The translations under genes and the position numbers were made by a program. The notes under the pieces are model-generated. The model saw only the letters and a list, made by a program, of their open reading frames with translations, had not been told where the DNA came from and did no database searches. From IMG/VR virus record IMGVR_UViG_3300029778_000002: DNA of 61,948 nucleotides, one strand, 5' to 3'. Shown here one piece after another: positions 557 through 61,948 of the stretch. This stretch comes from a virus. How positions within the stretch are numbered: the first letter of the stretch is position 1; each line of letters opens with the position of its first letter.

Positions 557-561
557 AAATA

Positions 562-837
562 TCACACCTCCTCAGAACGACAGAAGTCCGTGTAATAAAC
601 CAGGTCGTAATCCAGCGGATGGTTGTTCCAGTCGTAGTTCTGCTCGTAATCAGCAATCTCATCACGCTTGTCGAGTTCGCGGCAAATATCATCGTTGTGC
701 TCATAGAACCATTCCAGCGGAAGGTCGAACTTGTCGCACAGTTCCGGAATATCAAAGGCCCAGCAGCCGTAGTTGGTGTTCTGTGTACCCTCCGAAACCA
801 TGTAATCGACAATCTCTTTTACTTTTTCTCTGCTCAT
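562..837 (-). CDS. Hypothetical acidic protein (91 aa)
   Basis: GAAGGAG SD before the ATG. The ORF is uninterrupted. Confidence 0.55.
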   Translation of the reverse strand: MSREKVKEIVDYMVSEGTQNTNYGCWAFDIPELCDKFDLPLEWFYEHNDDICRELDKRDEIADYEQNYDWNNHPLDYDLVYYTDFCRSEEV

Positions 838-886
838 AATCCTTACTCCTTCTGTTGTTCAAATATCAGGCTCTCTGGCCCGGTTG

Positions 887-934
887 TGAGTCATGCGGGA
901 ATCGAACCCACCGTACAGCCCATGCTAATGACTC
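887..934 (-). other. Internally deleted tRNA-like remnant (acceptor stem plus T-arm only)
   Basis: The minus strand reads GAGTCAT-TAGCATGGGCTGTACG-GTGGGTTCGATTCCCGC-ATGACTC-A. It has a perfect 7-bp acceptor stem and a GGTTCGATTCC T-arm, but no room for D or anticodon arms. Confidence 0.5.
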
Positions 935-967
935 AAATAAAAGAGCCCCAGATTTCTCCAGGGCTCT
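934..967 (-). terminator. Rho-independent terminator (conserved GAGAAATC-loop family)
   Basis: The minus strand reads AGAGCCCTGGAGAAATCTGGGGCTCT followed by TTTATTT, just downstream of the stop at 975. Confidence 0.7.
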
Positions 968-974
968 CATGTGC

Positions 975-1370
975 TTATTCTTCAGGTGTACAATAATCAA
1001 CGTCGAGATGCACTTTACCTTCGCTATCCGTGTAGGTGACGAACTTTCTCGGTTGATGGAACATCTTCTCGTACTTCTCGACGAACTCCGGCAAAAGCTC
1101 ACCGAAATCATCCTCCGTGAGGCCTACAATCAGGAATGTTCCAACGATAATATCAATGGGGATACCATAAGGGCCGTCGAGCGTCCGGTTGAGTTTCTCC
1201 ATGCAATCATCATGCAGCTTTCCTTCTTCGTTGCAAATCAATGCCACCTCATCGTCCCACGGGTAAACAGCCTGAATCGGGCCTTCCACCTCTTTCTGGA
1301 GCGATTCCAGAGAACAGTCAATGTCGATCACTTCAGGGTAATGCTTTGGGCGAACCCTCAGAACTTTCAT
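975..1370 (-). CDS. DUF3846-like phage protein (131 aa)
   Basis: GGGAGG SD. The sequence pattern MKVL..P....E.I......LQ..V.G.I...Y......L.CNEEGKL is typical of DUF3846. Confidence 0.55.
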   Translation of the reverse strand: MKVLRVRPKHYPEVIDIDCSLESLQKEVEGPIQAVYPWDDEVALICNEEGKLHDDCMEKLNRTLDGPYGIPIDIIVGTFLIVGLTEDDFGELLPEFVEKYEKMFHQPRKFVTYTDSEGKVHLDVDYCTPEE

Positions 1371-1504
1371 ACTGTCAACCTCCCAAATTGCACATCAAAA
1401 ATATAAATCGAGCTGTTTCCTTAGAGCCGCCATTTGCGACGTGGGCACTCACCGACTGGACATTCGACCAGGGACTGACCCCGGCACTCGAAAAATATCA
1501 ATGA

Positions 1505-2435: not shown

Positions 2436-2451
2436 AAATATCAGTCTCCTT

Positions 2452-3069
2452 TTACTTGCTGATTTCAATCTCCAGAATTTTCAGGTCTGCCACGAGTGCT
2501 GTCAGGTGGAGAAGCGCACCAGACTGATTGTTGCTCTTGGCAGCGCTGAGGAACTTCTCAAAATCCTTATTTGCCTCAGAACTGTACTTTTTCAGCACAT
2601 CCAGATCGACAGCTTTTCCGGCAGCAGGCTTCCCGGGATACTTCTTCCCGCTCTTCTCAACCCAATTCTGGATCTCCTTGTAATAGCCGCCCTTGTTACC
2701 ACCGCAACGCTTTGCAATTGCCATGGCCAGCCCCTTCTCCGGGTCGAAAACATCCTTCTCGCTGCACTTCACAACGGTCTTGGAACCATCCGACCAGTAA
2801 ACGATTGTGGCCGGAGGAGCAAAGATAACGTCCTTGATAGCAGCTGTGTTCGTAGCAGAAGCGGTCTTCTTACCCTCGCACCGAGGATAGAGCGCGCCAG
2901 AACGGATACGCCAATTGCCGTCTCGATCAGAGGTCAGATCACCCGGGCAAAATGCGAGTTCGTGACCAGTAGAAAGAATCACCCTCGTCAGGTCGTCGTG
3001 CAGATTCTTCTCAACGGTTCTGATATAGCCAATCAGCTGTCCCTTGGAATCGTACAGTTTGTTCGTCAT
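2452..3069 (-). CDS. Hypothetical conserved phage protein (205 aa)
   Basis: Context GAGGTGATATTTT-ATG. The PPATIVYWSDGSKTVVKC...EKGLAMAIAK block resembles a widespread Bacillota-phage domain of unknown function. Confidence 0.55.
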   Translation of the reverse strand: MTNKLYDSKGQLIGYIRTVEKNLHDDLTRVILSTGHELAFCPGDLTSDRDGNWRIRSGALYPRCEGKKTASATNTAAIKDVIFAPPATIVYWSDGSKTVVKCSEKDVFDPEKGLAMAIAKRCGGNKGGYYKEIQNWVEKSGKKYPGKPAAGKAVDLDVLKKYSSEANKDFEKFLSAAKSNNQSGALLHLTALVADLKILEIEISK

Positions 3070-3075
3070 AAAATA

Positions 3076-6000
3076 TCACCTCACGTCAAAATTTCTTGCT
3101 GCTTCTTCCTGCGCATCGCTCCAGGGAAGATCCGGCGCTGTCCATGGAGCAATACCGTCGTCGCCAACGAACCAGTTGAAGTCGCCGTACTTGGAGATCT
3201 CCTCAACTGCCTCATCGACTTCCCGGTTGAAATATCTTTTGTCGATATCCTCCTGCATCTGGAGCTGATAGACCGCCTCGCTTTCCAGCCAACGGTAATC
3301 CTTTGCTCCGGTCACAGAAGCATATTTCCGTTCGCCAGTATCCGTCAGGCCCGCTTCCCGCAGCAGCAGAGCGCCACCCTTTCCCGGCATGATCGGGCAG
3401 AACTGTCCCACGCGACCCACAAAAATATAATTGTGTTCGCCTTCAGGCAGGTCCTCGTTCTTGTCGAGATAGATAGCGCCCTTGGAAACGGTTTTTGTCT
3501 CGCAGAGGTCGGTGAACTCGATCTTCTCCTTGGAGAACAGGGTCTTGAACACATACGGCACCTGGAACTGGGTGCCCGTAGCCGTCCATTCGCCGCCTTC
3601 GTCCTTGCAGTCGCCCGGGGTATAGCCGTAAAGCGCCTCACAGCGGTCCGCAGTCATGTATTTCGCAATATAAACGGCATTGTTCACCAGACACATCCGC
3701 TCGTAGGTTGCCTCATGCTCGAACGTGTAGCCGTACTTTTTTGCAAAATCCATGCAGTACGCAATGATTTCCGGGGTCGCATCGGGGATCTTGATCGAAT
3801 CCGTTTTGATATGCGCGACCTTAAAGCCGCGCTGCTGCACTTCATCCTGCAAAGTGCGCATAAATAAAGCCCCTCGAAGCGCCACAATGTTGTTGGCGTT
3901 CTTGGGGTTGCGGAACGGGTTGTCGAAGCTTGCACTGGTCAACCCGTAAACCGAGTTGATGGCGATCTTCAACGCCTGCGCCAAAGCCTTTGCCTGCTGC
4001 GGATCATCGAGGTACTTTGCCAGTTTGCCGCCAAAGAGCCCCTTTGCCTTCTCGTACTCGCCGTGCTTGACGTAGATTCGTACATCCATCAGGTCGTTGA
4101 AATGCTTGGTGTACTCACCAAAGTAGTTCATGGCAACAGCCGAATGCGGATGCAGCGACGCAACATCAAGCAGAGCTACGTTCGTGTACATCCCGGGCTC
4201 AGCGTAGACATAACCACCCATACCCAGGTCCGTGCCCCGGAACATGTTGTGGTACTTGCCGTCCTCGCCCTTGGCCCACTCGTAACCGGGAAAGGCATTG
4301 ATGATGTTGCAGTCGGTCAAAATATCAGGCTCGACTTCCACGATCGCATCGGATTTTCCCGTAGCAAGGTCGGTGTAGACCAGCCTGGGGTGCTTTTCCT
4401 TGCCGAAAATAATGCGTGTTGTCAGCGAGTTTGTCGTGTCGTTCACCGTCATGCCGGCAAGGTCTGCCAGAATCTCTCGCGCCACAAAGTCTGCCTGACG
4501 CTTTTTCGAGTAGAACAGGGTCTCGGTCGCAATCACGTCGTTGTCGCAATACTCGGCCACCTTGTCCCACAGGCTCTTCGGCACCGGCTGATCCCACGGA
4601 AGCCCCAGCTCCTGATGGTGGATCCCTAACTCGATTTCAAACTTCTTAAGGCTCTGTTTTTTCGACGAGAAGTCGTAAATATCAGTGTAGGACAGGTTGT
4701 ACGCCTCACCAAAGAAGCCCGTGTGCTCGTTGATGATCCGGTTGGACAGCGCATAGATCTGCTCCACCGACATCCCGATCATGCGGGCCCAGAGGATATG
4801 GTTGTCGTACTTGCGGTTGTTGAAGCCGACCAGCCGATACTTTGTCAGGCTCTCGATCTCCTCCGGCGTAGGATTTACCATGCGGTGTACAGGCTCCTGC
4901 TTGGCAAACTTCCAGTTCACGAGCAGCAGATTCGGGAACACCTCCACGTCGAAAAATATCAATGGCGTTTCCTCCCCCACAGGGGCCTCCCGCTGAATAT
5001 CATCCTTCGACTTGAAGTGCATCTTCGCCACGATCTTCAGGCAGGTGTCCGCCTGGTTCGTGCTGCTGGCAGCAAAGCCCAGGATCGCATTCCGCATGTC
5101 GTCCACGTTGTAAACGACATTGCCCTCGTAGGCTTCGTCCATGATGTGCGCAATAAAGTCAATGCTGGGCTTCGTATAGGGGCTGATCTCTTTGGCAAGG
5201 GCTTTCTTGATGAGGATACGCAGGTGCCGCTCATCCTGGATCTGCTTTGTATCAACCATTTTCGTTTCTCCCTTCAGTGGCAGGCCGCTGCTGATGGTCG
5301 CAACCGGAATATCATTGCATTTCGACAGTTTTCTCCGCAGAGAGGACTTCCCCGTGAACACCTTGACCTCGATATTCTCGTCGTAGATCCTGCTCAGCTT
5401 CGTTGCATCGCCGGTGTAAATATAATGCAGGTGGATGCCCGCACCAGATTTGCTCAGCTCCGCATAGGTCTGGGGCCATTTGGAGGCAGCTTCCAGGTTG
5501 CGCTCGAAGCTCTTTTTTCCATCCGGCCCGGGAATATCAAAGTCGATGACAATGTGATTCTCCGGAACTTTCACGTAGTGCAGTCTCGAAGCATCCAGTT
5601 CGGCCAATTTTGACTCGACATTCTCCCATTTTCGCATCGGAATGCCATCGTCTGTCGCATACTGTGCAGGGCAGTCCTTGCAAATATCATTGAAGAGAGA
5701 ATGCTGCTCCTTGAACTCGATCCATGACGTTTCCGGCTCGGCAGTGGGTTCTTCTGCCTTCACAGGTTCGTCAAGGAACTCTTTGAATTTCTCCGCTTTG
5801 AAGCCACTGTAGTAGCTCCGCACCCGCTCGCCATTCACGGTCTCCGCGCGTTCCTTGTACTCCTCGAAGTAGTTCATCAATTCTTCCCGGAACGCACGGC
5901 GCGAATATGGGTACGCCACCTTAGCCTCGTCATTGTAGGTGTTGTACATCGCCCAGGCCCGCTTCAGAGATACACCGTCCTCTTTCTTGAAAATATAAAA

Positions 6001-7080
6001 GGAATCCAGCATGAAGTTGTAAAAGTCGTTCGATGCACCCAGCATACGGGTCGGAATATAATCATCGTAGAGATGCTTGTTCTGCTCGTATACTTCCTTG
6101 CAGTGCCATGCGATGCCACCCAGCTCAAAGTCCACCTTCGCTACAAGGTCACGGTACTTTTTTGCAGGGATCTTTTCGCCGGTAGGTTCCACATCAATCA
6201 GTCGTCGGATCAGGCCCGATTTTGCATCCGTGATCTTAACGGGCTTGTTGGTGCCCAGAAACATGAAACACTTGAACTGGCTGGAATACTGGCTGCGGAA
6301 CTTCTCGTTCACCAGCATGGTCTCGTGGGATACCAGCGAGTTCAGCCGGGTGTTGTCCTCGATGCGGGAAAGGTCACCGTCGTGCTGGATCGCGATCAGC
6401 GGGTTCGATTTGAACGCCTCCAGCGCAAACGCATTGGACGATGACCCCAGCACCTTGGAGTCGAACACCGACCAGTACCCGTCAAAAAGTTTCTGGACGA
6501 TGTTCAGCACGGTCGATTTGCCGCTGCCGGGTGGACCATAGAGCACGAGGAACTTCTGGATCTTGCGGGAATCGCCGTTCACGATCGCGCCAACCGCCCA
6601 TTCGATCTTCTTTCGCTCCTCGGGAGAATATAAGGTAGTCATCAGCTCGTCGTAGGCGCTGATGTTCCCCTCCTCCAGAAGATACGGCAGCCGCTTCGAC
6701 GCATAGCTTTCCTTCTTGACCGGGGTGTTCGCAAATATCAATGTATCGTCAAGGGTGTGGTAGTTGTCCCGCATCTGACGCTGACAGTATTTGTGCCAGT
6801 TGTCGATCATCCCGCTCTCCGCGTCCCACATGTGCAGAACACGGTAGCTGTCATTGAAGACCTGCTTGTGTTCCTCCGCGTAAATATCCAGCGCGCGGTC
6901 GATCATCTGGAGCGCATCCTGTTCGTCCGTGCTCCAAAGCCCCCGCTCTTCCATCCAGACCGCGTAAAAATCAGAACCCCGGATCATCAGGTCTTTCGAC
7001 TTTTTGATGATGAATTTGGGATAAATTTCGATTGTCCCGCGTTTTCCCGTCCGCGTTGCAATCATCAGGAAATCAATCAT
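3076..7080 (-). CDS. Replicase fusion: SF3/D5-like helicase + AEP primase + family B DNA polymerase (1334 aa)
   Basis: Walker A is VLYGPPGSGKST (about 6511-6540). AEP motifs are VIDFD and SGAGIHLHY (about 5460-5560). PolB ExoI is FFDVEVF, motif A is LDVASLHPHS (about 4141-4175), motif B is KIAINSVYG and motif C is IKTDS (about 3781-3810). Confidence 0.85.
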   Translation of the reverse strand: MIDFLMIATRTGKRGTIEIYPKFIIKKSKDLMIRGSDFYAVWMEERGLWSTDEQDALQMIDRALDIYAEEHKQVFNDSYRVLHMWDAESGMIDNWHKYCQRQMRDNYHTLDDTLIFANTPVKKESYASKRLPYLLEEGNISAYDELMTTLYSPEERKKIEWAVGAIVNGDSRKIQKFLVLYGPPGSGKSTVLNIVQKLFDGYWSVFDSKVLGSSSNAFALEAFKSNPLIAIQHDGDLSRIEDNTRLNSLVSHETMLVNEKFRSQYSSQFKCFMFLGTNKPVKITDAKSGLIRRLIDVEPTGEKIPAKKYRDLVAKVDFELGGIAWHCKEVYEQNKHLYDDYIPTRMLGASNDFYNFMLDSFYIFKKEDGVSLKRAWAMYNTYNDEAKVAYPYSRRAFREELMNYFEEYKERAETVNGERVRSYYSGFKAEKFKEFLDEPVKAEEPTAEPETSWIEFKEQHSLFNDICKDCPAQYATDDGIPMRKWENVESKLAELDASRLHYVKVPENHIVIDFDIPGPDGKKSFERNLEAASKWPQTYAELSKSGAGIHLHYIYTGDATKLSRIYDENIEVKVFTGKSSLRRKLSKCNDIPVATISSGLPLKGETKMVDTKQIQDERHLRILIKKALAKEISPYTKPSIDFIAHIMDEAYEGNVVYNVDDMRNAILGFAASSTNQADTCLKIVAKMHFKSKDDIQREAPVGEETPLIFFDVEVFPNLLLVNWKFAKQEPVHRMVNPTPEEIESLTKYRLVGFNNRKYDNHILWARMIGMSVEQIYALSNRIINEHTGFFGEAYNLSYTDIYDFSSKKQSLKKFEIELGIHHQELGLPWDQPVPKSLWDKVAEYCDNDVIATETLFYSKKRQADFVAREILADLAGMTVNDTTNSLTTRIIFGKEKHPRLVYTDLATGKSDAIVEVEPDILTDCNIINAFPGYEWAKGEDGKYHNMFRGTDLGMGGYVYAEPGMYTNVALLDVASLHPHSAVAMNYFGEYTKHFNDLMDVRIYVKHGEYEKAKGLFGGKLAKYLDDPQQAKALAQALKIAINSVYGLTSASFDNPFRNPKNANNIVALRGALFMRTLQDEVQQRGFKVAHIKTDSIKIPDATPEIIAYCMDFAKKYGYTFEHEATYERMCLVNNAVYIAKYMTADRCEALYGYTPGDCKDEGGEWTATGTQFQVPYVFKTLFSKEKIEFTDLCETKTVSKGAIYLDKNEDLPEGEHNYIFVGRVGQFCPIMPGKGGALLLREAGLTDTGERKYASVTGAKDYRWLESEAVYQLQMQEDIDKRYFNREVDEAVEEISKYGDFNWFVGDDGIAPWTAPDLPWSDAQEEAARNFDVR

Positions 7081-7112: not shown

Positions 7113-7367
7113 TTATACGTCTTTCTCTTTCTGGAGGGTCATCTGGGCCAGCGTTGCCTCTGCCTCGCGGGCACGCTCATCGGCTTCCTTGCGCTGCTTT
7201 TCTGCCTCGTTCACCATCTTGCAGGAAACGAAGCCAAACCACAGCAGACCAGCGATGAGAATGTTCTTCCGGATGCACTTGCCCTTCATGCGGCGGATGG
7301 TGTGATTGGCCACCTCCAGTGCAGCCTTGCTGTTGCTCAGGTCGATCAAAATATCAGTCAGTTCCAT
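7113..7367 (-). CDS. Hypothetical membrane/coiled-coil protein (84 aa)
   Basis: GGAGGA SD 8 nt before ATG 7367. One hydrophobic helix followed by a charged tail. Confidence 0.5.
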   Translation of the reverse strand: MELTDILIDLSNSKAALEVANHTIRRMKGKCIRKNILIAGLLWFGFVSCKMVNEAEKQRKEADERAREAEATLAQMTLQKEKDV

Positions 7368-7523
7368 TGTCAATTTTCCTCCAGTAATTCGGGTCAGCCA
7401 GAATCAGCCGGCCAATGTTATTCTCGTCTCGACACGCCGTGATTCGCATCATCACATGGGAATCGTCGAGTATCTTTTCAACAAATCCTTCCATAGGGAT
7501 GCAGATTTTTGATTCATATGTCA

Positions 7524-8075
7524 TCAAAACTCATTCTCATTCAACCAGCTCATCAACTGGTACCAAATATCAATGGTACGCATATCGATGGACGTACGGG
7601 TAATCGTAAAGAGACCGCCAGCCCCGTTCGGCTGATAGTCCCGATCCATAAACCGGGCCAGGATCGGTTCCGCGCGCTCTTCGCTGAAACGGGTGTCGTC
7701 CATGGCAGCCAGACCCAGGCTGACGACCATGCTCCAGAACCACTGCCCCACACGGTTGCCCATGCTGCGGTCTTCCATGATGTGTTCCTCGATGCGAATC
7801 GCCAGCGCCACCATCATCTCCAGCATAGAGCAGGGTACGCCCTGAAATACCGCATCGATCTTCCCGTACGGAATATTATTCTCCGATGCAAAGCGGTACC
7901 GCAGGTTGATGCCGTCCGTTGCCCGGCAGACATCCATTTCGCACGCCGGAATATAATCCCGGTTAAAAAGATACATCAATAAGCGGTGAAAGCTGAGGTT
8001 CCGGGGCTCCCATTCGCCGCAGACGATCTTGTAGAGCCAGTCATAATACTGCTCCGTCTCCCTCATAAAGTTCAT
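7524..8075 (-). CDS. Hypothetical protein (183 aa)
   Basis: ATGA start/stop overlap with the upstream gene. Long clean ORF. Confidence 0.55.
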   Translation of the reverse strand: MNFMRETEQYYDWLYKIVCGEWEPRNLSFHRLLMYLFNRDYIPACEMDVCRATDGINLRYRFASENNIPYGKIDAVFQGVPCSMLEMMVALAIRIEEHIMEDRSMGNRVGQWFWSMVVSLGLAAMDDTRFSEERAEPILARFMDRDYQPNGAGGLFTITRTSIDMRTIDIWYQLMSWLNENEF

Positions 8076-8858: not shown

Positions 8859-8883
8859 AGCGTATTCCTCCAAAATATCAGTC

Positions 8884-9870
8884 TCAGATCTTGTCGATGA
8901 TGGGCCCGTCACAGTTGAACCGCAGCATCACCGAGCGCTCCCCGCCGTTGATAAAGCTGTTCAGTGCCTCGTCGCCCTCGACGTAGTTGGTCACACCAAA
9001 ATCCACGTGGTTCTGTCGGGTCGGGTCGTTCGGGTCATAGATCCAGCCAACGATCTGCCCTTCCGGGGTCTTCATGGTCACACCGCCGTGCGTTCCGATG
9101 CTGCTCAGAACGTCGTTCAGGAACAGGTGCCCCTGGATGCGCAGCCGCTTGTTTGCCGCCTGCTCCATCAGGAAAAGGTAGTTGCGGTTCAGCTGGTTGT
9201 CAGCCTGCCAGGTGTCCACAGTCTCGTCAAAGATGCAGGTATAGGGGCTGGTGTGCTGCATGGCGATGTCCTTGTATTCCTTGATGGTCTCCTCCACGCC
9301 CTGCTCGTTGGTGCTCTTGCTCTCGAGCTCCACAGCCTTGATGTTGTGCTCCAGCTCCTCCTGCACACGGCTGCCAAAGCGGTCGGATACACGGCTCTTG
9401 TATTCCTCAAAGGCCTTGTCCAGAGCAATATAAGCCGCGGTAAGGCTCGCATTGCGCTTGGACATAATGTGGTGGGAACCGAACATGCAGCCCAGAGATA
9501 CTGCACCCAGGGTGACCGCAGGCGCATACACCTTTGCCAGCTTCAGGCCGGTCTGGACGTAAGTGGTCGTAATATCGCTCTTGTAATCCTTCTCGGTGTA
9601 GGTCTCGCCCTCGCTCAGCTGGACCGTGCCATCCTCGATCTGCTTCTTGGCCGTGTGGATGCTCTCAACCTGAGCATAGTGCTCGGTCAGAATATCCTGT
9701 GCCTTGATGGTCGCCTTGCAGGCCAGCACGGTAGCAGTCACACCACCAATGGCAGCGCCAACGATCATAATGGTGGGGCTTGCCTTCTTCAGCTTGTAGC
9801 CGCACTTGGATGCAGCACGGGTCATCGTTTCCACGATTTCGGTTTTGTCGATCTTTTTCAGGAACTTCAT
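8884..9870 (-). CDS. Membrane-anchored protein, paralog family member 1 (328 aa)
   Basis: Start at ATG 9870 (AAAGGAT-TGATATTT-ATG). It shares an N-terminal TM, an RNASLTAAY...YK..V block and a GW..D C-terminal region with 11003..11788 and 12310..13128. Confidence 0.65.
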   Translation of the reverse strand: MKFLKKIDKTEIVETMTRAASKCGYKLKKASPTIMIVGAAIGGVTATVLACKATIKAQDILTEHYAQVESIHTAKKQIEDGTVQLSEGETYTEKDYKSDITTTYVQTGLKLAKVYAPAVTLGAVSLGCMFGSHHIMSKRNASLTAAYIALDKAFEEYKSRVSDRFGSRVQEELEHNIKAVELESKSTNEQGVEETIKEYKDIAMQHTSPYTCIFDETVDTWQADNQLNRNYLFLMEQAANKRLRIQGHLFLNDVLSSIGTHGGVTMKTPEGQIVGWIYDPNDPTRQNHVDFGVTNYVEGDEALNSFINGGERSVMLRFNCDGPIIDKI

Positions 9871-9893
9871 AAATATCAATCCTTTCTTATTGT

Positions 9894-10990: not shown

Positions 10991-11002
10991 CCGGGTCAAA
11001 TA

Positions 11003-52538: not shown

Positions 52539-52841
52539 TTACCGTGCCAGCGCTCCATAAAGAAGCAAAAATACAATGATGCCTATCATAATAGCCAAAG
52601 AGGATTTCATGGATTTGTTGCTTTCCTTTGCTCTCCATCTCTCCTGCTCCATCTTCTTAAGCTCAAGTTCTTTCGCATCCTTGGACTCTTGAATCCGTGC
52701 TTCATCCACAAACCGATGCGTCTCCTGATAGTCATCGAGCCGAACCTTCGTCCCGCAGAACTCACAGAACATGAAATCTCGGTTGTCATCCTTCACCGTA
52801 AGATCCGCGCCACAGCCAGGGCATTTTACCGTCCGTGCCAT
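52539..52841 (-). CDS. Zinc-ribbon, C-terminally membrane-anchored protein (100 aa)
   Basis: TAGGAGGTG SD. CPGCG...CEFCG motifs and the C-terminal TM helix LAIMIGIIVFLLLYGAL. Confidence 0.6.
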   Translation of the reverse strand: MARTVKCPGCGADLTVKDDNRDFMFCEFCGTKVRLDDYQETHRFVDEARIQESKDAKELELKKMEQERWRAKESNKSMKSSLAIMIGIIVFLLLYGALAR

Positions 52842-55041: not shown

Positions 55042-55296
55042 TTAGGTTTTCATAATAGCGTTTGCTGCATGAACCAGATATGTGGTACCGTCAATCGTGA
55101 TTTGCAGCTGATCGCCTTCGTAGTCAGTCCAGTTGTCCACTTTGCCTTGAACTATAGTTCCATCGGGCAACTTAATCTGTGCCCAGGAATAGGTAAATGT
55201 CGTATCAAACACCCTATAGTTTCCGCAACTGCATAACCCGAGGCAGCCAACGAGCATCATCATACATGCAACGACGCAAATAATACGATTTTTCAT
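55042..55296 (-). CDS. Lipoprotein (84 aa)
   Basis: Start at ATG 55296 (GAGGTG SD). Signal peptide with lipobox-like LVGC/LCSC. Confidence 0.6.
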   Translation of the reverse strand: MKNRIICVVACMMMLVGCLGLCSCGNYRVFDTTFTYSWAQIKLPDGTIVQGKVDNWTDYEGDQLQITIDGTTYLVHAANAIMKT

Positions 55297-55307
55297 AGTC
55301 AATCACC

Positions 55308-55451
55308 TCAACCAAATATCATGTAAATCAAAAGCAAGAACCATCCTGTATATCTGATGATTCTCTGTTTTTCTTCGCCGATGTTCTCAGCAAAAGACAT
55401 TCCAATTGCGATAGCTTGCAAAATAATGCTTGCGAGCAGCACAATTCGCAT
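55308..55451 (-). CDS. Small two-helix membrane protein (47 aa, not in ORF track)
   Basis: The ATG overlaps the thyX stop (TGATG). Encodes MRIVLLASIILQAIAIGMSFAENIGEEKQRIIRYTGWFLLLIYMIFG. Confidence 0.4.
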   Translation of the reverse strand: MRIVLLASIILQAIAIGMSFAENIGEEKQRIIRYTGWFLLLIYMIFG

Positions 55452-56161
55452 CACTTCACCATACTTCCTTTCCATGTCTGGTCATCCGCAGGCCAGTATG
55501 TGTAGATATCATCGAACACCACCGGGATCTTCTTCTGGAGTTCCATCAGCAGCGGGCACATGAGCTCCCGCATCTGAGGATGGGCCGCCACAGGAGTACG
55601 CAGCTTGAAGATGTTGCGCCACTCACGGTAGTTGGCAGTCACCACGATCTCGGTCTTCAGGCACAGCGGCAGCACACAACGGGCCTGTTCGGGACGCATA
55701 CCGAGTGCGATCATATCCTTATAAAGGATTTCCGCAGATTCGCAGGAATCAAGCCAGGTGCTGCCAGGCGTATATTCTGTGCTTTCACGTTTCTCGTCAG
55801 TGTCGGTCACATCAATATAATACGGCCGAATGAATGTCAACTCTCCGCCAAACTTCTCCTTCGAGTAGTTGCAGTACCGTGTGCTCTCCTGCGCAAAGCT
55901 CGCAATACGGTGCCTTATCAGTTCATTGGCCACGCCACGATCACAGGTAAACAGCACACTCAGCTGCGAATGCTCCAGCATAGCCTCATGCCCCTGCTTC
56001 ACCAGAAAGCCCACCAGTTTCTTTGCCGACTCACCATCCGGCGTGATCTTGTCCTCGCTCTTATAGCAGACCCGGGCCACCCGCTCGATCTGCTGGAGCT
56101 CCTTAATGCCTCCCTCAGAAATATCAGTGAGGATTTCGTACTTAGGTTCAACGATTTTCAT
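55451..56161 (-). CDS. thyX: FAD-dependent thymidylate synthase ThyX (236 aa)
   Basis: ThyX motif IRHRIASFAQESTRYCNY, plus HEAMLEHSQLS. Confidence 0.9.
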   Translation of the reverse strand: MKIVEPKYEILTDISEGGIKELQQIERVARVCYKSEDKITPDGESAKKLVGFLVKQGHEAMLEHSQLSVLFTCDRGVANELIRHRIASFAQESTRYCNYSKEKFGGELTFIRPYYIDVTDTDEKRESTEYTPGSTWLDSCESAEILYKDMIALGMRPEQARCVLPLCLKTEIVVTANYREWRNIFKLRTPVAAHPQMRELMCPLLMELQKKIPVVFDDIYTYWPADDQTWKGSMVK

Positions 56162-56521: not shown

Positions 56522-56778
56522 ATATCAGCCAGCCTTTCTCTATCAGGATCTCGCAAAATAGAATCCCAGTCTCTAATAAGTTTCCGTAAGCCATGATCAT
56601 CTGCTATTGGGTTCATCGTTTCGTCATCATATTGCACTATGACACTGCCTGCTTTATCGCATCCAAATCCGCAATTCCGACACTGAATCTTATACTTGAT
56701 TTCCAGGCTTGTTCCAGTGGTAGCTGTTCCGTATACAGTTGGCCTCACTTTTGAATAGCATGCCGGACAACATCTCAT
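56518..56778 (-). CDS. Zinc-ribbon protein (86 aa)
   Basis: Contains CCPAC...CRNCGFGC. ATGA overlap with the upstream gene. Confidence 0.55.
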   Translation of the reverse strand: MRCCPACYSKVRPTVYGTATTGTSLEIKYKIQCRNCGFGCDKAGSVIVQYDDETMNPIADDHGLRKLIRDWDSILRDPDRERLADI

Positions 56779-57350
56779 ATAAAATCCTCCAAAATCGAGT
56801 TAAGCAGAATCTCCAGCACCCGGTTTATACCCGCCACCACTCGATATGGCCACGGTTCTTTCGGTTTCACCCGGGCAGGGGTATCAGACTTTCTCAGCGC
56901 ACCATAAAGCCACCTGTCGAACTGCCCAAGTGAAATATCATTCTCCATGCACCATTCACGAGCATCTGCGTAGCTAATGTCACCATTCATGCAAAGCTCG
57001 ACCACATCACGCAATGTAGCGTTCGGCTTGATCAGGGTATCTTTTTGAATCTCGTAATCATCAAAATACAAGTCCTCGCGTGACCCGTCAGCCCTGTGAA
57101 TAACTTGCGCAAAGGGTTTGCCATCCGCATAAAGCGTCGTAATATCCTCATCAATGTCAATTCGAGGACAGTCGTACCTCCATATGGCCTCAACAACTTC
57201 TTCATAGTCAATCATATCGCACCTCACAGCAGAATCCGGAACAAAATGAACCAGATCACCTTCAGCGTGAACGCAATAATGATCAGCCATGCACAAATAA
57301 CCAGCGTTGCCGCCAGAATATGACCCAGCATATGGCCGATTTTTTCCCAA
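56775..57350 (-). CDS. Hypothetical protein (191 aa; start uncertain)
   Basis: Clean ORF. The track TTG start lacks an SD, and the first ATG is 20 codons in. Confidence 0.45.
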   Translation of the reverse strand: MGKNRPYAGSYSGGNAGYLCMADHYCVHAEGDLVHFVPDSAVRCDMIDYEEVVEAIWRYDCPRIDIDEDITTLYADGKPFAQVIHRADGSREDLYFDDYEIQKDTLIKPNATLRDVVELCMNGDISYADAREWCMENDISLGQFDRWLYGALRKSDTPARVKPKEPWPYRVVAGINRVLEILLNSILEDFI

Positions 57351-57557: not shown

Positions 57558-57763
57558 ACCGCACACCTCCTCGCAGCATCCAGACGGCTCTCCGCAGCGT
57601 TCAGCTCGAAGATAGCAGCCGTGATAAACTCCGGATCGCAGTTCTCAAAGTGGTTCCGGGCCACCTCAAGATCCCGCAAAGCCTCCCACATGGTATTGAC
57701 CGTCGTTGGAATCGGCTCCATACGGAATATCTTTTTGGCGAAATCAACGATTTTTCGCAGCAT
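57554..57763 (-). CDS. Hypothetical small protein (69 aa)
   Basis: Start moved to ATG 57763 (GGAGGTG SD). Begins MLRKIVDFAKKIF. A decayed paralog lies at 58940..58981. Confidence 0.5.
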   Translation of the reverse strand: MLRKIVDFAKKIFRMEPIPTTVNTMWEALRDLEVARNHFENCDPEFITAAIFELNAAESRLDAARRCAV

Positions 57764-58121
57764 TTCTACACCTCCACATCTTTGTAACCTGACGAGCCGT
57801 GAGCCAGCCCTCAACATCATCAAGGCCAAGTGCCTGCCTACCCATCACCTCGATAAGCCCCTGCTCAAAGCCATAGGAACCCCAACCCCAAATGCCATCC
57901 CAGATACGATTTCCAGCAGCATCATATGCAGTGATTTGCTCACCACCATCGTGTCGTCCGCCCGGGAGATATTCCTGACAGTCCGGTCTGTCCATCTCTG
58001 GCCAGCGACGTTCATAAGTATGCGGAACCTTAGCATGCTTCAGCAGAATATCCAACTTCTGCATCTCGGTCATGTGATTCCAAACCCGGAGTTTCCAGGT
58101 TTTCTTAGACATGTTTCTCAT
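57744..58121 (-). CDS. Hypothetical protein (125 aa), paralog of 58962..59294 at both termini
   Basis: Start moved to ATG 58121 (AAAGGAAA SD). MRNMSKKTWKL... and the C-terminal ...AAKNR match MRNMSKKTRKL... and ...VAQNR. Confidence 0.5.
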   Translation of the reverse strand: MRNMSKKTWKLRVWNHMTEMQKLDILLKHAKVPHTYERRWPEMDRPDCQEYLPGGRHDGGEQITAYDAAGNRIWDGIWGWGSYGFEQGLIEVMGRQALGLDDVEGWLTARQVTKMWRCRNAAKNR

Positions 58122-58269
58122 TTCTGCATTTCCTTTCGTCGGCCTCCATGGTCTTTGCAATTTTATGCTGAATATAAAGCACACAGCCAGCCTGACTATC
58201 ACACCCGAATGAAGCCAATAGTCCAGCAATAGCATTCAAAGAGTTCAGATCCTCTTCAGCAAATATCAT
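58105..58269 (-). CDS. Possible small protein (54 aa, not in ORF track)
   Basis: Opens with ATGATATTT. Encodes MIFAEEDLNSLNAIAGLLASFGCDSQAGCVLYIQHKIAKTMEADERKCRNEKHV. No clear SD. Confidence 0.3.
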   Translation of the reverse strand: MIFAEEDLNSLNAIAGLLASFGCDSQAGCVLYIQHKIAKTMEADERKCRNEKHV

Positions 58270-59294: not shown

Positions 59295-59458
59295 TTAATT
59301 TTCACCTTTGCTTCCTCGAACTTCAGAGGCTTCACCGTACCCTCCCGCGCACACTCCGTCAGGCACTCGTGGCAGGGTTCATCCGTCTCCAGCACCTTGA
59401 AGCTCTTGCACTTCGGACAGTAGGTCGCATAGTCCACTTCGCGCATCCAGTTATTCAT
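59291..59458 (-). CDS. Zinc-ribbon small protein (55 aa, not in ORF track)
   Basis: GGAGGT SD. Encodes MNNWMREVDYATYCPKCKSFKVLETDEPCHECLTECAREGTVKPLKFEEAKVKIK. Confidence 0.45.
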   Translation of the reverse strand: MNNWMREVDYATYCPKCKSFKVLETDEPCHECLTECAREGTVKPLKFEEAKVKIK

Positions 59459-59631
59459 CAGCGCTTACCTCCGTCGTATCTATGCATCGTGTATCCATTG
59501 CAAATCTTGCACTTAGCATAGCGGATGTTCGGATAGTACCTTGAATACCTTTCAGCTTCATTCCATTTATGAAGTGCGATTGTGCGTTTGCAAGCGCAGT
59601 CCATGCACACAATTTTTATTCGGTCACTCAT
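59458..59631 (-). CDS. Zinc-ribbon small protein (57 aa, not in ORF track)
   Basis: GGAGGTG SD. Encodes MSDRIKIVCMDCACKRT...KCKICNGYTMHRYDGGKR. Has a TGATG overlap downstream. Confidence 0.45.
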   Translation of the reverse strand: MSDRIKIVCMDCACKRTIALHKWNEAERYSRYYPNIRYAKCKICNGYTMHRYDGGKR

Positions 59632-60526
59632 CAGGTTTCACCTCCGAAATAAAAGTGTCCTTTCCGCAGCGAGGGCAACGTGCCAGAACCTCACCGTTAT
59701 GGATTGTGCACTCCTTCATACTGTTCCAGTTAGATGCAGGAATCCCAAAATGAGCATTACAGCCACCGCATTTAACAGCAACGAGCTTTTCGTCAGGATC
59801 TGCATATCCGTCAAGGTCGCCGATGTATTTATGTACCCAATGCCCATTACAAAACGGGCATTTCAAAATTCTACTGCTCGCAGGAACTTCATCCATGTCG
59901 TACAGCCACCCCTCAGGGGCAACAGGATGGCGTTTATTGCAATTGGTACACTCAACCGATATCCAAGGACGTTTTTTCTGGGTCTTCTCCTGCTTAACTG
60001 AGAACCTATCATCCAGAATATCTTTCATGGGAACAAGCACCGAATGGTTGCAAAAACAACACTTTAATTCAAGTTTTTCTCCAGAAACATCCTTTCGAAA
60101 TCCTACCCCATCGCAAATCTGGCCATTCTCTTTAATAATCGTAGCCTCACAATTGGGGCAAAGGACTTGATAGTTCTTTTTCTTAACCTCCCCAACCTTT
60201 ACCGCAAACCTATCATCCAGTTCCGGATGGGTCTCTCGCTGATTCAATGCCCACAGCAGGTTCCAGCAGGCCGCGCGCAGGTGATCCTCATCGTCCATGC
60301 CAACCATGTACTTTGCCAGATGCCGAGAAGCGCTGTCCAGCAGCGAATGCAGCGGAATACCCTTGTCTACGTTGTGCTCACCATACTTCAGTGCGCCCTC
60401 CTCGCAGTGCTTGCTGACTTCCATGATGCCATACCAAGGCAGAAGATCCATCCGCCCCTTCCCTGCGTGCATATCACGCTTTGCGCCAGTTTCAAATTCG
60501 GTGCGATCTCCAGAATCTTTAATCAC
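59624..60526 (-). CDS. dATP/dGTP pyrophosphohydrolase-like (DUF5664-type) domain fused to three zinc-ribbon modules (300 aa)
   Basis: Start at GTG 60526 (AAAGGAT-TGATATTT-GTG). N-terminus GAKRDMHAGKGRMDLLPW...GALKYGEHNVDKGIP...RHLAKYMVGMDDEDHLRAACWNLLW, followed by three CxxC-N-CxxC units. Confidence 0.55.
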   Translation of the reverse strand: MIKDSGDRTEFETGAKRDMHAGKGRMDLLPWYGIMEVSKHCEEGALKYGEHNVDKGIPLHSLLDSASRHLAKYMVGMDDEDHLRAACWNLLWALNQRETHPELDDRFAVKVGEVKKKNYQVLCPNCEATIIKENGQICDGVGFRKDVSGEKLELKCCFCNHSVLVPMKDILDDRFSVKQEKTQKKRPWISVECTNCNKRHPVAPEGWLYDMDEVPASSRILKCPFCNGHWVHKYIGDLDGYADPDEKLVAVKCGGCNAHFGIPASNWNSMKECTIHNGEVLARCPRCGKDTFISEVKPDE

Positions 60527-60544
60527 AAATATCAATCCTTTCTA

Positions 60545-60775
60545 TTAGCAGTGTTTATGAATCCGCCCCTGCATAACTTTGTTAGCCATGTCGGTCTTAG
60601 GAATCTTGCATTTCGGATAGCTCGGACGGAATCCATTGGCAGCTTTCCGGTCATTTGCAATTCTCATATAAACCTCGTCCTCCAGTTCATCTGTGATTTT
60701 CTTTATTTTATCTGCCGCAGATTCAAAAGAATGAATCAGGTCAGCAAATACATCTTCAAAGTTAACCTGCTCCAT
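60545..60775 (-). CDS. Hypothetical small protein (76 aa)
   Basis: Start moved to ATG 60775 (GAGAGGAAA SD). Overlaps the helicase 3' end by 14 nt. Confidence 0.5.
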   Translation of the reverse strand: MEQVNFEDVFADLIHSFESAADKIKKITDELEDEVYMRIANDRKAANGFRPSYPKCKIPKTDMANKVMQGRIHKHC

Positions 60776-61948
60776 AAAATTTCCTCTCATTAAACGCTTT
60801 CTTCGAGTTCAGGGCTCTCGAAATTGCCAGATCAATACCACTCCTACTCTTCAGATGGTAGTAGTACAGATCCTTGTACGGTGTATTCAGCCGGTCAATG
60901 CGCCCCGAGGCCTGCTCCATGATCTTATATGAGTAGTTCTGGCTGTAAAATATAATGGTGTCCGTCTTGATGCAGTTCCAGCCTTCAGCACCGGCATTGT
61001 ACTGCACCAGATACACCCACCTGTCGCCTTCAGGAAGCGGCTGATGCTTGTGCCCGTTCCATTGTGCAACTTCGGTGTCCTTGCCATAGTCCAGACCCAT
61101 CAGAATATCAAGCTCATAATCAAAATTATAGAAGATAATGACCCTAGGTCTGCCTTTGCAAATATCCAGCACTTTTTCTTGTCGGCTTGCATCAGCGTTC
61201 ACCAACTTCCGCAGCAGATAGCAGAACTCGCTGGCGGTCTCGATTGGTTTGTTCTCCCAGAGGTTCCACCGGTTCTTGCAGATTGAAAGATACTTCACCT
61301 TGTCATACTCCACAAATACATTCTCATGGTGCGATACAGTCGGCCGCTCGAAGTCCATGTCAACCAGAATCCGTTCCCGCAACCGTACCAAGCGCTGGGT
61401 ATTCAGATACCGGTCGATCTTCGGGTACTTCGTGCAGAATTGGCTGTATACCACATGCTGGTTGTTGAAGTCCGTTCTGTTTCGGTAGAACCCATTGGCG
61501 ATGAACACCGGGATATAATCCGTCCAGCAGTCCCCGGGGGTGGCGCTGAGCAATATCCACTCGTTATTTTGCGTAATTTTGTAGAAAGATTTCACCCATG
61601 CGCCCTTTCCAACGACTCGCTGCTCGTCAAATATAAAGAACGCATTCTTCACGCCAACGTACTTTCCGATATTGTTCCAGGAATCCACCACGACCTTGTG
61701 CTCGTAAATATCATGCTCTGGATCTGTAGACATATAGAAATGGGCCAGTTCTTCGTCCCACTCTCCCGTATCCCGTTTCCGGGCAGTCGTGATGATGTAA
61801 AGATCCGGGGGCTCTGTCATGCGTACATAATTCTCCGTATTTACCTCCCCATCGTAAAGTTTGTAATAGAACGCCAAACTCGTTCTCGATTTTCCGCTTC
61901 CTACGCCTCCGCATAAGATGCAGCCGATTTTCATACGGTTGATCGCAT
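60762..61948 (-). CDS. SF2 (DEAD/SNF2-like) helicase, 3' part; the 5' end continues at 124..157 across the circular junction
   Basis: Walker A GGVGSGKS, FDEQ (motif II), LSATP (motif III) and QASGRIDR (motif VI). The full-length protein is about 406 aa when the genome is circularised. Confidence 0.85.
   Translation of the reverse strand, partial: AINRMKIGCILCGGVGSGKSRTSLAFYYKLYDGEVNTENYVRMTEPPDLYIITTARKRDTGEWDEELAHFYMSTDPEHDIYEHKVVVDSWNNIGKYVGVKNAFFIFDEQRVVGKGAWVKSFYKITQNNEWILLSATPGDCWTDYIPVFIANGFYRNRTDFNNQHVVYSQFCTKYPKIDRYLNTQRLVRLRERILVDMDFERPTVSHHENVFVEYDKVKYLSICKNRWNLWENKPIETASEFCYLLRKLVNADASRQEKVLDICKGRPRVIIFYNFDYELDILMGLDYGKDTEVAQWNGHKHQPLPEGDRWVYLVQYNAGAEGWNCIKTDTIIFYSQNYSYKIMEQASGRIDRLNTPYKDLYYYHLKSRSGIDLAISRALNSKKAFNERKFYGAG
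61826..61948. repeat. Terminal direct repeat, copy 2 (identical to 1..123)
   Basis: See copy 1. Confidence 0.9.

Follow-up and report, generated by a model that had tools for sequence, protein, structure and literature searches.

Two short sense-strand words partition the genomes of Oengus-type phages encoding a two-barrel RNA polymerase

The DNA analysed here, IMG/VR virus record IMGVR_UViG_3300029778_000002 (61,948 nt, hereafter the window), is a circularly permuted relative of Faecalibacterium phage FP_oengus, with ~80% nucleotide identity over the replication region. Its coding strand, which is the minus strand for nearly all genes, carries two short, exact and oriented sequence words that divide the genome between them: M1 (TGATATTT), found almost entirely in the non-structural blocks, and M2 (TCAAAATGG(A), usually TCAAAATGGA), found mainly in the late block. 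Both words are under selection, conserved in position, and shared by a large family of Clostridia phages in which they co-occur with a phage-encoded two-barrel RNA polymerase (RNAP). We tentatively favour the reading that they constitute two classes of minimal promoters for phage-directed transcription, which we consider the leading candidate at somewhat less than an even chance. Oengus has been detected in up to 40% of samples from human gut viromes and is among the most prevalent Faecalibacterium phages (PMC5883640). The paper describing it makes no mention of motifs or promoters (PMC5883640), and the literature searched yielded neither a description of M1 or M2 in a phage context nor a promoter for the polymerase family, which bears helix-turn-helix (HTH) modules.

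In a k-mer scan of the window, M1 was by far the most over-represented 8-mer. The coding strand holds 31 copies (AAATATCA as read on the plus strand) and the other strand a single one, at 21315-21322; over both strands, dinucleotide-preserving shuffles (n=100) gave a mean of 1.66 copies and a maximum of 6, with 32 or more reached in 0/100. Thirty of the 31 copies lie within 1-19 kb and 47.6-62 kb, and the exception, at 41572, falls within the span of the only opposite-strand open reading frame (ORF), 40808-41860. When synonymous codons were permuted within each gene 1000 times, the non-structural blocks gave a mean of 2.2 intragenic copies (maximum 7) versus 17 observed, and the late block 0.74 versus 1 observed; these codon-preserving shuffles, like the context classes given below, use our own crude heuristic gene calls. 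Since the shuffles fall far short of the observed number, codon usage explains neither the M1 count nor its regional bias, and the two shuffling schemes together rule out chance or codon usage as the source of the motifs. The word is also sharply defined. Its one-mismatch variants are rare, with the exceptions of TTATATTT (14:0 between the strands), [AG]GATATTT and TGATATTC, and the sole flank preference within +/-45 nt is for an A two bases upstream (A-N-TGATATTT). A longer hidden motif or bipartite promoter was likewise sought over this distance and discarded, nothing emerging beyond the A at -2 of M1 and an A at +1 of M2.

A preliminary description of the window had listed the 31 plus-strand copies, all of which proved exact, and had proposed a strand-specific, block-restricted signal beyond codon bias; this is borne out by codon-aware shuffling, which the finding survived in the window and in FP_oengus alike. 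Other details required correction. The single opposite copy exists, starting at 21315 where ~21313 had been given, and the statement that the late block holds none on its coding strand contradicted its own listed copy at 41572, even if 30 of the 31 do reside in the non-structural half. The term GC-rich was overstated, as 2-kb windows span 43-61% GC.

The M1 copies occupy varied contexts. Six (60527, 12076, 9871, 3071, 2436 and 557) are flush (0-1 nt) with the start codon after a Shine-Dalgarno (SD) sequence, in the pattern GGAG-N(1-2)-TGATATTT-ATG, which pushes the SD-to-start spacing to 9-10 nt; the arrangement had been correctly recognized in the preliminary description, with seven copies rather than six. 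Five more lie 11-25 nt upstream of a start, and of the five or so first described as just 5' of an SD, four are so placed and 58261 lacks a clear SD. The intragenic copies amount to 17 of 31 (~55%), not the dozen originally estimated, and they do occupy two reading frames; the non-coding share is ~45%. The 1334-aa replicase ORF (3076-7080) harbours five internal copies, as first noted, and a sixth provides its TGA stop; stop codons are provided by the TGA of M1 at two sites (10998 and 3071). The words sit wherever the local sequence tolerates them, which argues for selection on their presence and not on a fixed position relative to a gene.

The second word emerged from an unbiased k-mer scan of the window; the preliminary description saw one motif only and missed it, on the same strand and in the complementary block. 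All 18 copies of M2 are on the coding strand. They run from 42808 to 13139, through the late block and ~6 kb after it, a range that complements that of M1 apart from a short overlap. Nine intragenic copies were observed in the late block of the window versus 0.95 in codon-preserving shuffles. Five genes of the window begin at the ATG of an M2 copy, the GG of M2 is part of an SD about four times, and roughly 8/18 copies lie inside ORFs by our crude calls, three of them in the tape-measure gene with the ATG out of frame. The M2 site at 42808, in the large-terminase gene, is also present in FP_oengus and in a Hungatella hathewayi prophage. A -10-like hexamer, in which position 2 is A and position 6 is T, can be read in both words (GATATT in M1 and CAAAAT in M2), each time preceded by T; in M2 it is followed by GGA, which resembles a discriminator.

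A further oligomer, GATATTCT(G), shows a 13:1 strand ratio in the window and is found in both blocks (e.g. at 61102, 50628, 42606, 31103, 29270 and 9689, minus strand). It was not retained as a third motif, because it is nearly always in frame as Asp-Ile-Leu and a codon-pair or peptide effect is possible.

By homology to the physical termini of Scap1, Gordon and 1706, the cos junction would lie at ~47698/47699, with ...GGGAGGGGG-TCTCAAAATCGACA-CCCCCTCTCAAATCGCGCCGGTCT before the junction and TTGATATTT-CCCCGGAGGG-AAAATTGATATTTTGG after it. The virion map then opens at cos-left with small genes and an HNH gene that together take up ~5 kb, followed by the late genes (terminase through lysis). Next come attP, the integrase gene, small early genes, and the replication and nucleotide-metabolism genes, and the map closes with a nuclease gene, the RNAP gene, an 89-aa ORF and cos-right. 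A RecB/PD-(D/E)XK nuclease adjoining the RNAP gene, together with a primase-helicase-polymerase, is a signature of the family. Dispersed M1 ends at the RNAP gene and M2 begins ~5 kb after cos. The M1 pair described earlier as flanking a hairpin at 47667-47697 is present, and what had escaped notice is its identity as the left side of the cos junction. In an AT-rich distant relative (locus L152, 9380-9530), cos shows three inverted M1-like copies (GAAAATATCAATCCAAAATATCATTTCAGGAATATCAGC) followed by sense copies beside G/C hairpins, an arrangement that suggests a protein-binding array.

FP_oengus presents the same map as the window, with M1 at 36:2 and M2 at 17:1. Its intragenic copies again exceed codon-preserving shuffles (20 observed versus 1.9 for M1, 12 versus 1.8 for M2), and its replicase gene contains eight M1 copies. 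FP_oengus could be aligned with the window at 22 M1 copies and matches 16-17 of them exactly, against a background in the same alignments of 25% for all 8-mers (P = 3e-6) and 35% for AT-rich 8-mers (P = 3e-4), so the signal first proposed from the window also stands when positions are compared between relatives. Turnover is nonetheless apparent in several lineage-specific copies whose counterpart is one base off. Although nucleotide alignment fails for the tape-measure genes of the two phages, each of these genes contains 3-4 M2.

Relatives were examined over ~10 kb on each side of the RNAP gene; these loci are phylogenetically non-independent, so pooled counts overstate the number of independent events. 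In 80 IMG/VR relatives (RNAP 86-100% identical) the pooled counts were 668:10 for M1 and 168:22 for M2, the antisense M2 deriving mostly from one inherited site. A profile in 1-kb bins around the RNAP gene, built on 87 close loci (these 80 and seven Faecalibacterium prophages), showed M1 at 0.4-1.7/kb upstream of the gene, 0.00/kb in its interior, 1.9/kb at cos, which corresponds to the pair, and ~0 after cos; M2 stood at 0.00-0.03/kb per bin upstream and at 0.3-0.6/kb from ~3 kb past cos. A profile search limited to one genome per species returned 80 loci, mostly prophages. Their hosts comprise Oscillospiraceae, Ruminococcus, Lachnospiraceae (Hungatella hathewayi, [Ruminococcus] torques, Enterocloster, Cuneatibacter, Lachnospira), Christensenella and others. 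In 74 distant loci, with an RNAP only 40-57% identical to that of the window (GC 33-54%), M1 upstream of the RNAP gene numbered 330 sense to 35 antisense copies where 20.6 were expected, and was found in 60/74 loci; M2 downstream of the gene numbered 169 to 0 where 3.5 were expected, in 53/74 loci. The block switch is the same, with M1 at 0.01-0.03/kb in the RNAP interior versus ~0.5/kb just upstream. Neither this M1-free interior, common to ~160 loci, nor the family-wide conservation in Clostridia phages had been noted in the preliminary description. L152 has M1 at up to 3 copies/kb, preceded by A-rich sequence and concentrated in its larger intergenic regions. Whether motif orientation follows inverted cassettes was also considered and set aside as not discriminating, the antisense copies being sporadic and without convincing reverse-strand genes.

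The RNAP encoded directly downstream of the M1 block, together with its HTH modules, had been overlooked in the preliminary description. It is 86.6% identical to gp55 of FP_oengus, a YonO/crAss-like two-barrel RNA polymerase according to HHpred (bioRxiv 10.1101/842583). An alignment of 30 diverse homologues revealed an invariant catalytic S-G-A-D-F-D-G-D, and the family comprises 847 clusters at 50% identity (E < 1e-30). Three similar HTH modules, two near the N-terminus and one C-terminal, are called as Sigma70_r4_2 and HTH_23 by Pfam, and a search of the RNAP profile against the PDB returned generic HTH matches only. YonO-type enzymes transcribe phage late genes and extend RNA with little pausing, and the YonO promoter was left undetermined in the 2017 paper (PMC5467207). 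In Thermus phage P23-45, two motif classes serve its two two-barrel RNAPs (bioRxiv 10.1101/2022.12.01.518664). A comparison of ~35 early-block ORFs (about half of the early genes) with Pfam detected no sigma-, NusG-, RfaH- or Q-like factor, RNA-binding protein or nuclease candidate, the sole relevant match being a sub-threshold TFIIB-type zinc ribbon, and Rfam identified only a tRNA in the window. The zinc-ribbon ORF (52539-52841, minus strand, 100 aa), ~1.7 kb upstream of the RNAP gene, shows TFIIB-type and poxvirus A2L matches (26.9 bits, cut-off 29) and is a possible transcription-factor candidate.

As promoters, M1 (A-N-TGATATTT) and M2 (TCAAAATGGA) would be oriented cis-elements that between them define both lytic transcription programmes in a temperate siphophage of the Oengus type. 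M1 would mark the replication, nucleotide-metabolism and recombination block, closing at the polymerase gene, and M2 the virion and lysis block with the first few kb past it. Neither would need a -35 element, like the T4 late promoter or the P23-45 classes, and the obvious candidate reader would be the 924-aa RNAP, which lacks a sigma factor and bears HTH modules at both termini. A length of 8-10 bp would let the words fit into an SD-to-start spacer, a stop (the TGA of M1), a start or SD (the ATG and GGA of M2) and codons in two frames, and internal copies would restart transcription for downstream genes.

Several observations favour this reading. The first is the switch at the RNAP gene and cos, combined with strict sense orientation and class-specific placement. 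Secondly, the RNAP gene (2.8 kb), which is the last large gene of the M1 block, is almost M1-free, whereas the 4-kb replicase gene carries 5-8 copies; this disfavours a signal needed per unit length, and internal promoters would pay only with genes downstream, of which little lies past the RNAP gene. Furthermore, a phage-encoded, sigma-less RNAP with HTH modules, related to YonO, which transcribes late genes, and to the P23-45 enzymes, with their two motif classes, supports a role in initiation. Placement also fits: one M1 precedes the RNAP start by 16 nt, leaving the SD between them, the cos-left pair lies ahead of the late genes, and the copies of L152 gather in larger intergenic regions. 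The early promoters of Scap1 and Gordon (TCGCAAG-N(~12)-TATAGTGA / TATAATGA) abut terminator T-runs, as M2 does at 13139, and the upstream half of these promoters is found again in the cos-right loop, a place taken in the window by the M2-like TCTCAAAATCGACA.

Known phage promoters offer partial parallels. T4 late promoters (TATAAATA) are likewise 8-bp sense elements without a -35 box, present in dozens of copies in one temporal class and in some cases inside ORFs; they are read by gp55/gp33 with the host core RNAP and are conserved across a broad phage family with different hosts. Here, in contrast, there are two words for two blocks, no gp55-like sigma factor and, as the likely reader, a two-barrel polymerase, and many M1 and M2 are flush with start codons, which T4 late promoters are not. 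The T7 group resembles the window in having its genes on one strand; its phage polymerase has class-specific promoters distributed along the genome, as is proposed here, and a short word recognized by the polymerase sits at the genome junction. T7 promoters, however, span 23 bp, are mostly intergenic and diverge quickly between relatives, whereas M1 and M2 measure 8-10 bp and are unchanged at ~50% polymerase identity. P23-45 resembles the window in its two-barrel polymerases and in a genome split by two unrelated short motifs, each of which maps to the region that one enzyme transcribes, but it has two phage polymerases, mapped starts and motifs at least 15 nt long upstream of these starts, where the window has one polymerase and half of the copies intragenic (bioRxiv 10.1101/2022.12.01.518664).

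The contact of both words with start codons would also suit operators at the RNA level, with UGAUAUUU and UCAAAAUGGA in the mRNA bound by a class-specific phage protein, an endoribonuclease or a small RNA, so as to govern the initiation of translation or the decay of middle and late mRNAs. We deem this unlikely. Such a role is in line with the six M1-filled SD-to-ATG spacers, the five genes started by M2, the restriction to the sense strand and an exact-match sharpness like that of seed-type recognition. The Hungatella prophage has four M2, one being the in-frame I-K-M-E site in the large terminase, as in the window, and the other three the start codons of the portal gene, the protease/capsid gene and a small downstream gene of the connector region, with the SD-to-ATG spacing stretched to 10-13 nt. 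The preliminary description had led with the analogy of T4 RegA/RegB targets, which, much as M1 and M2 would be, are short RNA words at the SD or AUG of one temporal class; it had also named a pause or anti-termination signal and a polar DNA signal as alternatives. The analogy fits the copies beside start codons and fails for the 17 intragenic ones, as RegA/RegB sites are degenerate and confined to initiation regions, whereas over half of the M1 copies lie deep in ORFs and some at cos. The ~8/18 intragenic M2, including those with an out-of-frame ATG in the tape-measure gene, count against RNA operators in the same way, and the M1 copies at cos, inverted at the cos of L152, point to recognition of DNA. 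No RNA-binding or nuclease candidate was found among the scanned ORFs, and Rfam returned only the tRNA; an antisense cos RNA could hold both anti-motifs, but in lineage L093-L095 that sequence no longer matches M1.

On the coding strand of the early blocks there are at least 14 strong terminators of the hairpin type, of which eight form one conserved family, and in most members of this family the next SD/ATG follows within ~10-40 nt, so that there is no space for a classical promoter. This would be compatible with elongation signals, that is, pause, re-loading or anti-termination sites in the non-template strand or nascent RNA by which a fast, pause-resistant, sigma-less polymerase would stay coordinated with ribosomes or get past the many intrinsic terminators, an explanation that we rate as rather unlikely. 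Its appeal lies in the sense-only placement both at start codons and inside long ORFs and in the low pausing of YonO-type polymerases (PMC5467207). The -10-like hexamers, with GGA following in M2, and the M1 pair at the genome junction are in keeping with it too. Sigma-dependent or NusG-dependent pause elements provide a comparison for the former, and the class II pause signal of T7, which sits at the T7 concatemer junction, a parallel for the latter. It is difficult to reconcile, however, with an RNAP gene essentially free of M1 in ~160 loci and with irregular M1 spacing (coefficient of variation near 1, hand-computed from the coordinates), and two codes would call for two polymerases or factors, where no NusG-, RfaH- or Q-like factor appeared in the ~35 proteins scanned. 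A more speculative variant, which we consider improbable, is a punctuation code for a sigma-less, pause-resistant RNAP, with the words as -10-like non-template elements (T-S-A-W-A-W-T) recognized in elongation, neither promoter nor operator. The polymerase, or a factor riding on it, would stall or re-engage at gene starts and within long genes, with one code per chromosome half, and the words at cos would tie transcription to genome maturation. If true, this would be a new built-in coupling device conserved across a very large gut-prophage family.

M2 keeps to the left of the 61.9-kb virion map (x = 4.9-34.6 kb) and M1 to the right (x = 28.8-58.8 kb; both hand-derived), so that the blocks could mirror the two physical halves of the linear chromosome. 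The words might be polar DNA signals for a translocating or scanning machine, whether Chi-like attenuation sites (for host AddAB or for the RecB-like nuclease and helicases of the family), priming sites of the fused primase-helicase-polymerase or signals for packaging/ejection, a proposal to which we assign a low probability. Like Chi, KOPS and SRS, they are exact, oriented and over-represented oligomers in coding and non-coding DNA; M1 is present at cos, and the family has both the RecB/PD-(D/E)XK nuclease and the primase-helicase-polymerase. In addition, an ATATT(T/C) core is selected in actinophage relatives, on the sense strand only, independently of codons and in all three frames (21 versus 4.5 in Scap1, with 46 versus 10 in S29632 and 40 versus 13.7 in contig89, two oral siphovirus contigs; control, 12 versus 9.5 in the unrelated phage Epona), and from this enrichment the M1 core may predate the Clostridia branch. 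On the other hand, Chi, KOPS and SRS occur host-wide and change strand according to replication or end polarity, whereas M1 and M2 are family-specific and keep to one strand, with one word giving way to the other. Under Chi logic each half should show the same word but on opposite strands, not two words sharing a strand; explanations through bidirectional replication or a primase, which would need the same word on opposite strands, were rejected because this is not observed. A single primase has no need of two block-confined words, and the switch falls where the transcription classes meet, at the RNAP gene. The cos pair apart, M1 is missing from the final 3 kb and M2 from the initial 5 kb of the virion map, and such scarcity near both ends is the opposite of what end protection requires. 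Moreover, the unrelated Faecalibacterium phages Brigit, Mushu and Epona (136 kb) contain only 2+1 M1 and 1+0 M2, and one Faecalibacterium metagenome-assembled genome (MAG) fragment contains neither word, the host chromosome proper being outside the sample. A host-wide signal such as Chi was discarded on the three unrelated phages, sampling of integrase relatives having yielded mostly unrelated low-GC Clostridia, which were uninformative.

The phage is temperate, with a tyrosine integrase gene at 17421-18455, and Faecalibacterium genomes hold related prophages. A monomeric immunity repressor blocking the elongating polymerase across the prophage at stoperator-like sites, as in the cluster A mycobacteriophage L5, would be compatible with this lifestyle, and dozens of asymmetric sites along the direction of transcription, many at gene junctions, are defining traits of stoperators; in L5 and TipsytheTRex, more than 20 such sites are oriented with transcription and many lie in short gaps (PMC9283540). 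We nevertheless regard this as very unlikely. Over half of the M1 sites are inside ORFs, and 8-10 bp is short compared with the 13 bp of a repressor-bound, monomer-type stoperator. Stoperators are specific to immunity groups, with which they reportedly co-vary, whereas M1 and M2 are mostly class-restricted and invariant across host families and across lineages with RNAPs 40-57% identical. The window already has three elements resembling classical sigma-A-type promoters with a palindromic operator (see below), and no repressor candidate was identified.

A number of points weigh against the promoter reading itself. We infer the assignment from sequence. A conventional promoter could not serve the adjacent gene from the six M1 flush with start codons, ~55% of M1 copies are intragenic with ~45% of copies at gene junctions, and the M2 whose ATG starts portal, capsid and other late genes look equally like translation-initiation elements. 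There is no second conserved element or fixed downstream feature within +/-45 nt. The mid-genome boundary between the blocks is fuzzy: M2 continues for ~6 kb among the early-left genes, and the lysis genes of FP_oengus hold a few M1. Two motif classes face one evident phage polymerase; the second class might be read by the host RNAP with a phage factor, by another HTH module or through a specificity factor. In lineage L093-L095 the cos-left M1 copies are degenerate and the dispersed M1 unchanged, which also weakens the idea that the dispersed motif, or an antisense regulatory RNA, originates from the cos copies. Finally, within the same polymerase family, both words are absent by direct count from Lactococcus phage 1706, and Arthrobacter phage Gordon presents no comparable k-mer outlier; the motifs are hence not a property of every phage with this polymerase, as 1706, Gordon and Streptomyces phage Scap1 lack a comparable exact 8-mer. 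We leave the probability not taken up by the readings named here to mechanisms that we have not thought of.

If they are promoters, M1 and M2 would be unusual for their brevity, for their embedding in spacers, stops, starts and ORFs, and for their conservation at ~50% polymerase identity across host families; if they are not, the same embedding would point to a type of signal undescribed for phages. Two family-wide, block-specific exact words would provide testable candidates for the cis-code of the HTH-bearing two-barrel polymerase family. They could serve as a sequence-only marker for the temporal modules and the cos boundary of such prophages, and as compact parts for synthetic biology in Clostridia, where they are candidates for orthogonality to host signals.

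Table 1. Coordinates and contexts of M1, M2, the cos hairpins and the RNAP gene in the window
Feature	Position	Strand	Context	Relatives
M1	61706-61713	-	Intragenic, 390-aa helicase-like ORF 60762-61934	Identical in FP_oengus
M1	60527-60534	-	Fills SD-to-GTG spacer of ORF 59624-60535 (dATP/dGTP diphosphohydrolase-like)	
M1	58261-58268	-	Intergenic, 25 nt upstream of ORF 57744-58235 start	Identical in FP_oengus
M1	56933-56940	-	Intragenic, ORF 56775-57350	Identical in FP_oengus
M1	56119-56126	-	Intragenic near 5' end of ORF 55451-56161	TGATATCT in FP_oengus
M1	55314-55321	-	11 nt upstream of ORF 55042-55302 start, SD between	
M1	50841-50848	-	16 nt upstream of RNAP start codon, SD between; last dispersed M1 before cos	
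M1	47690-47697	-	Presumed virion left end (cos-left), first bases; 5' flank of hairpin	
M1	47667-47674	-	3' flank of cos-left hairpin	
M1	41572-41579	-	Sole late-block copy, in span of opposite-strand ORF 40808-41860	
M1	18922-18929	-	Intergenic, upstream of integrase gene	
M1	18539-18546	-	Intergenic, upstream of integrase gene (17421-18455)	
M1	15413-15420	-	Intragenic, ORF 15255-15509	
M1	12076-12083	-	Fills SD-to-ATG spacer (aaaggagatTGATATTTatg)	Identical in FP_oengus
M1	11089-11096	-	Intragenic, DUF6353 ORF 11003-11788	
M1	10998-11005	-	TGA is stop codon of ORF 11003-11788	
M1	9871-9878	-	Fills SD-to-ATG spacer of DUF6353 paralogue 8884-9870	Identical in FP_oengus
M1	8873-8880	-	Directly 5' of SD, 14 nt ahead of ATG	Identical in FP_oengus
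M1	7565-7572	-	Intragenic, ORF 7524-8075	Identical in FP_oengus
M1	7349-7356	-	Intragenic near 5' end of ORF 7113-7373	
M1	6733-6740	-	In replicase ORF 3076-7080	Identical in FP_oengus
M1	5682-5689	-	In replicase ORF 3076-7080	
M1	4954-4961	-	In replicase ORF 3076-7080	
M1	4677-4684	-	In replicase ORF 3076-7080	
M1	4320-4327	-	In replicase ORF 3076-7080	
M1	3071-3078	-	TGA is replicase stop; 1 nt ahead of ATG of ORF 2452-3069	
M1	2436-2443	-	Fills SD-to-ATG spacer	
M1	1493-1500	-	Intergenic, 122 nt upstream of DUF3846 ORF 975-1370	TGGTATTT in FP_oengus
M1	861-868	-	Intergenic, ~70 nt past terminator 968-941, 23 nt ahead of ORF 562-837 ATG	
M1	684-691	-	Intragenic, ORF 562-837	
M1	557-564	-	Fills SD-to-ATG spacer (gaggaggtgTGATATTTatg)	
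M2	42808-42816	-	First after cos; in large-terminase ORF 41918-43669, in frame I-K-M-E	
M2	37870-37878	-	ATG matches, by homology, annotated protease/capsid gene start in FP_oengus	Same arrangement in L205
M2	35767-35775	-	11 nt upstream of ORF 35426-35755 start	
M2	33873-33881	-	53 nt upstream of ORF 33229-33819	
M2	31391-31399	-	In tape-measure ORF 25963-32865, ATG out of frame	
M2	28685-28693	-	In tape-measure ORF 25963-32865	
M2	26285-26293	-	In tape-measure ORF 25963-32865	
M2	24381-24389	-	Tail-gene region, 5' of SD-like stretch	
M2	23005-23013	-	GG opens SD of ORF 21712-22998	
M2	20857-20865	-	ATG is start codon of ORF 20480-20860	
M2	20360-20368	-	ATG is start codon of ORF 20199-20363	
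M2	19855-19863	-	Intragenic, ORF 19580-20206	
M2	19237-19245	-	ATG is start codon of ORF 18977-19240	
M2	18968-18976	-	Overlaps SD, 11 nt ahead of ATG	
M2	17345-17353	-	Intergenic, ~40 nt past terminator 17416-17390	
M2	16229-16237	-	Overlaps foot of hairpin 16230-16207	Identical in FP_oengus
M2	15211-15219	-	ATG is start codon of ORF 14810-15214	
M2	13139-13147	-	Last copy; fused to T-run of terminator 13182-13155; GG opens SD of DUF6353 ORF 12310-13128	Identical in FP_oengus
RNAP ORF	48050-50824	-	924 aa, single-subunit two-barrel, YonO/crAss-like, HTH modules; candidate reader; interior without M1 and M2	
cos-right hairpin	47716-47745	-	GGGAGGGGG-TCTCAAAATCGACA-CCCCCTC; loop M2-like, one mismatch	
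cos-left hairpin	47677-47692	-	TTTCCCCGGAGGGAAA, between two M1 copies	

The eight members of the conserved terminator family (58560-58533, 54137-54112, 16432-16405, 15599-15571, 13182-13155, 11845-11818, 10568-10541 and 968-941, minus strand) are hairpins with a GAAA tetraloop that hardly differ from one another (GAGAGC..GAGAAATC..GCTCT) and lead into T-runs. Each stands directly 3' of a stop codon, and their stems vary by compensatory changes. The notion of a promoter in every inter-terminator interval was abandoned, several intervals containing no motif when inspected by eye.

An element of ~40 nt (ctttATGAGAtgRttagtctcaRaaTTATATTTtggagg) is present in three copies on the minus strand, at 58844-58817, 54440-54413 and 13461-13434. 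Its sequence has the appearance of a sigma-A-type promoter (ATGAGA-16-TATATT) combined with a palindromic operator (TGAGA-N7-TCTCA), and its -10 region is the TTATATTT variant of M1. Each copy precedes a small ORF closed by a terminator of the GAAA-tetraloop family.

Among the relatives, TGCCCACTTT(T) was found upstream of the RNAP gene in 52 of the distant loci (L148-L226), with 138 sense and 48 antisense copies versus 0.2 expected; given its occurrence in both orientations, it may be part of a conserved hairpin or operator. Scap1 (L005, 22650-26870 and 43026) and Gordon (L098/L099, 30014-34600 and right terminus) contain 7-8 conserved bipartite promoters, TCGCAAG(A/T)TT-N9-T(A/G)TA(A/G)TGA, which lie just past the lysis genes, abut terminator T-runs and are common to phages of different host genera. 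In both phages, the TCGCAA element is also found in the loop of the cos-right hairpin. Oengus-family contigs were encountered in MAGs labelled Bacteroides, Oxalobacter, Burkholderiaceae and Parabacteroides (L091, L094, L154, L155, L171, L203 and L223); these are probably mis-binned phage contigs and not indicative of true hosts.

The FP_oengus record (L001 1-28 and the end of L002; NC_047916 58364-58391) carries TGTGTAACACCATTTCTATCTGATATTT repeated at both ends and closing in an M1 copy, which is presumably the att core of the prophage. In the window, a stretch at ~880-930 (minus strand), between the terminator at 968-941 and the M1 copy at 861, contains ggtgGGTTCGATTCCCgcatgactca, which resembles a tRNA T-arm and 3' end and may be an att-type remnant. 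The tRNA gene at 13738-13809 (minus strand) scores 47.5 bits in Rfam and is reported by ARAGORN with an abnormal anticodon ('tRNA-???', anticodon 'ca'). The early block also encodes three DUF6353 paralogues on the minus strand (12310-13128, 11003-11788 and 8884-9870), and the same is seen in FP_oengus.

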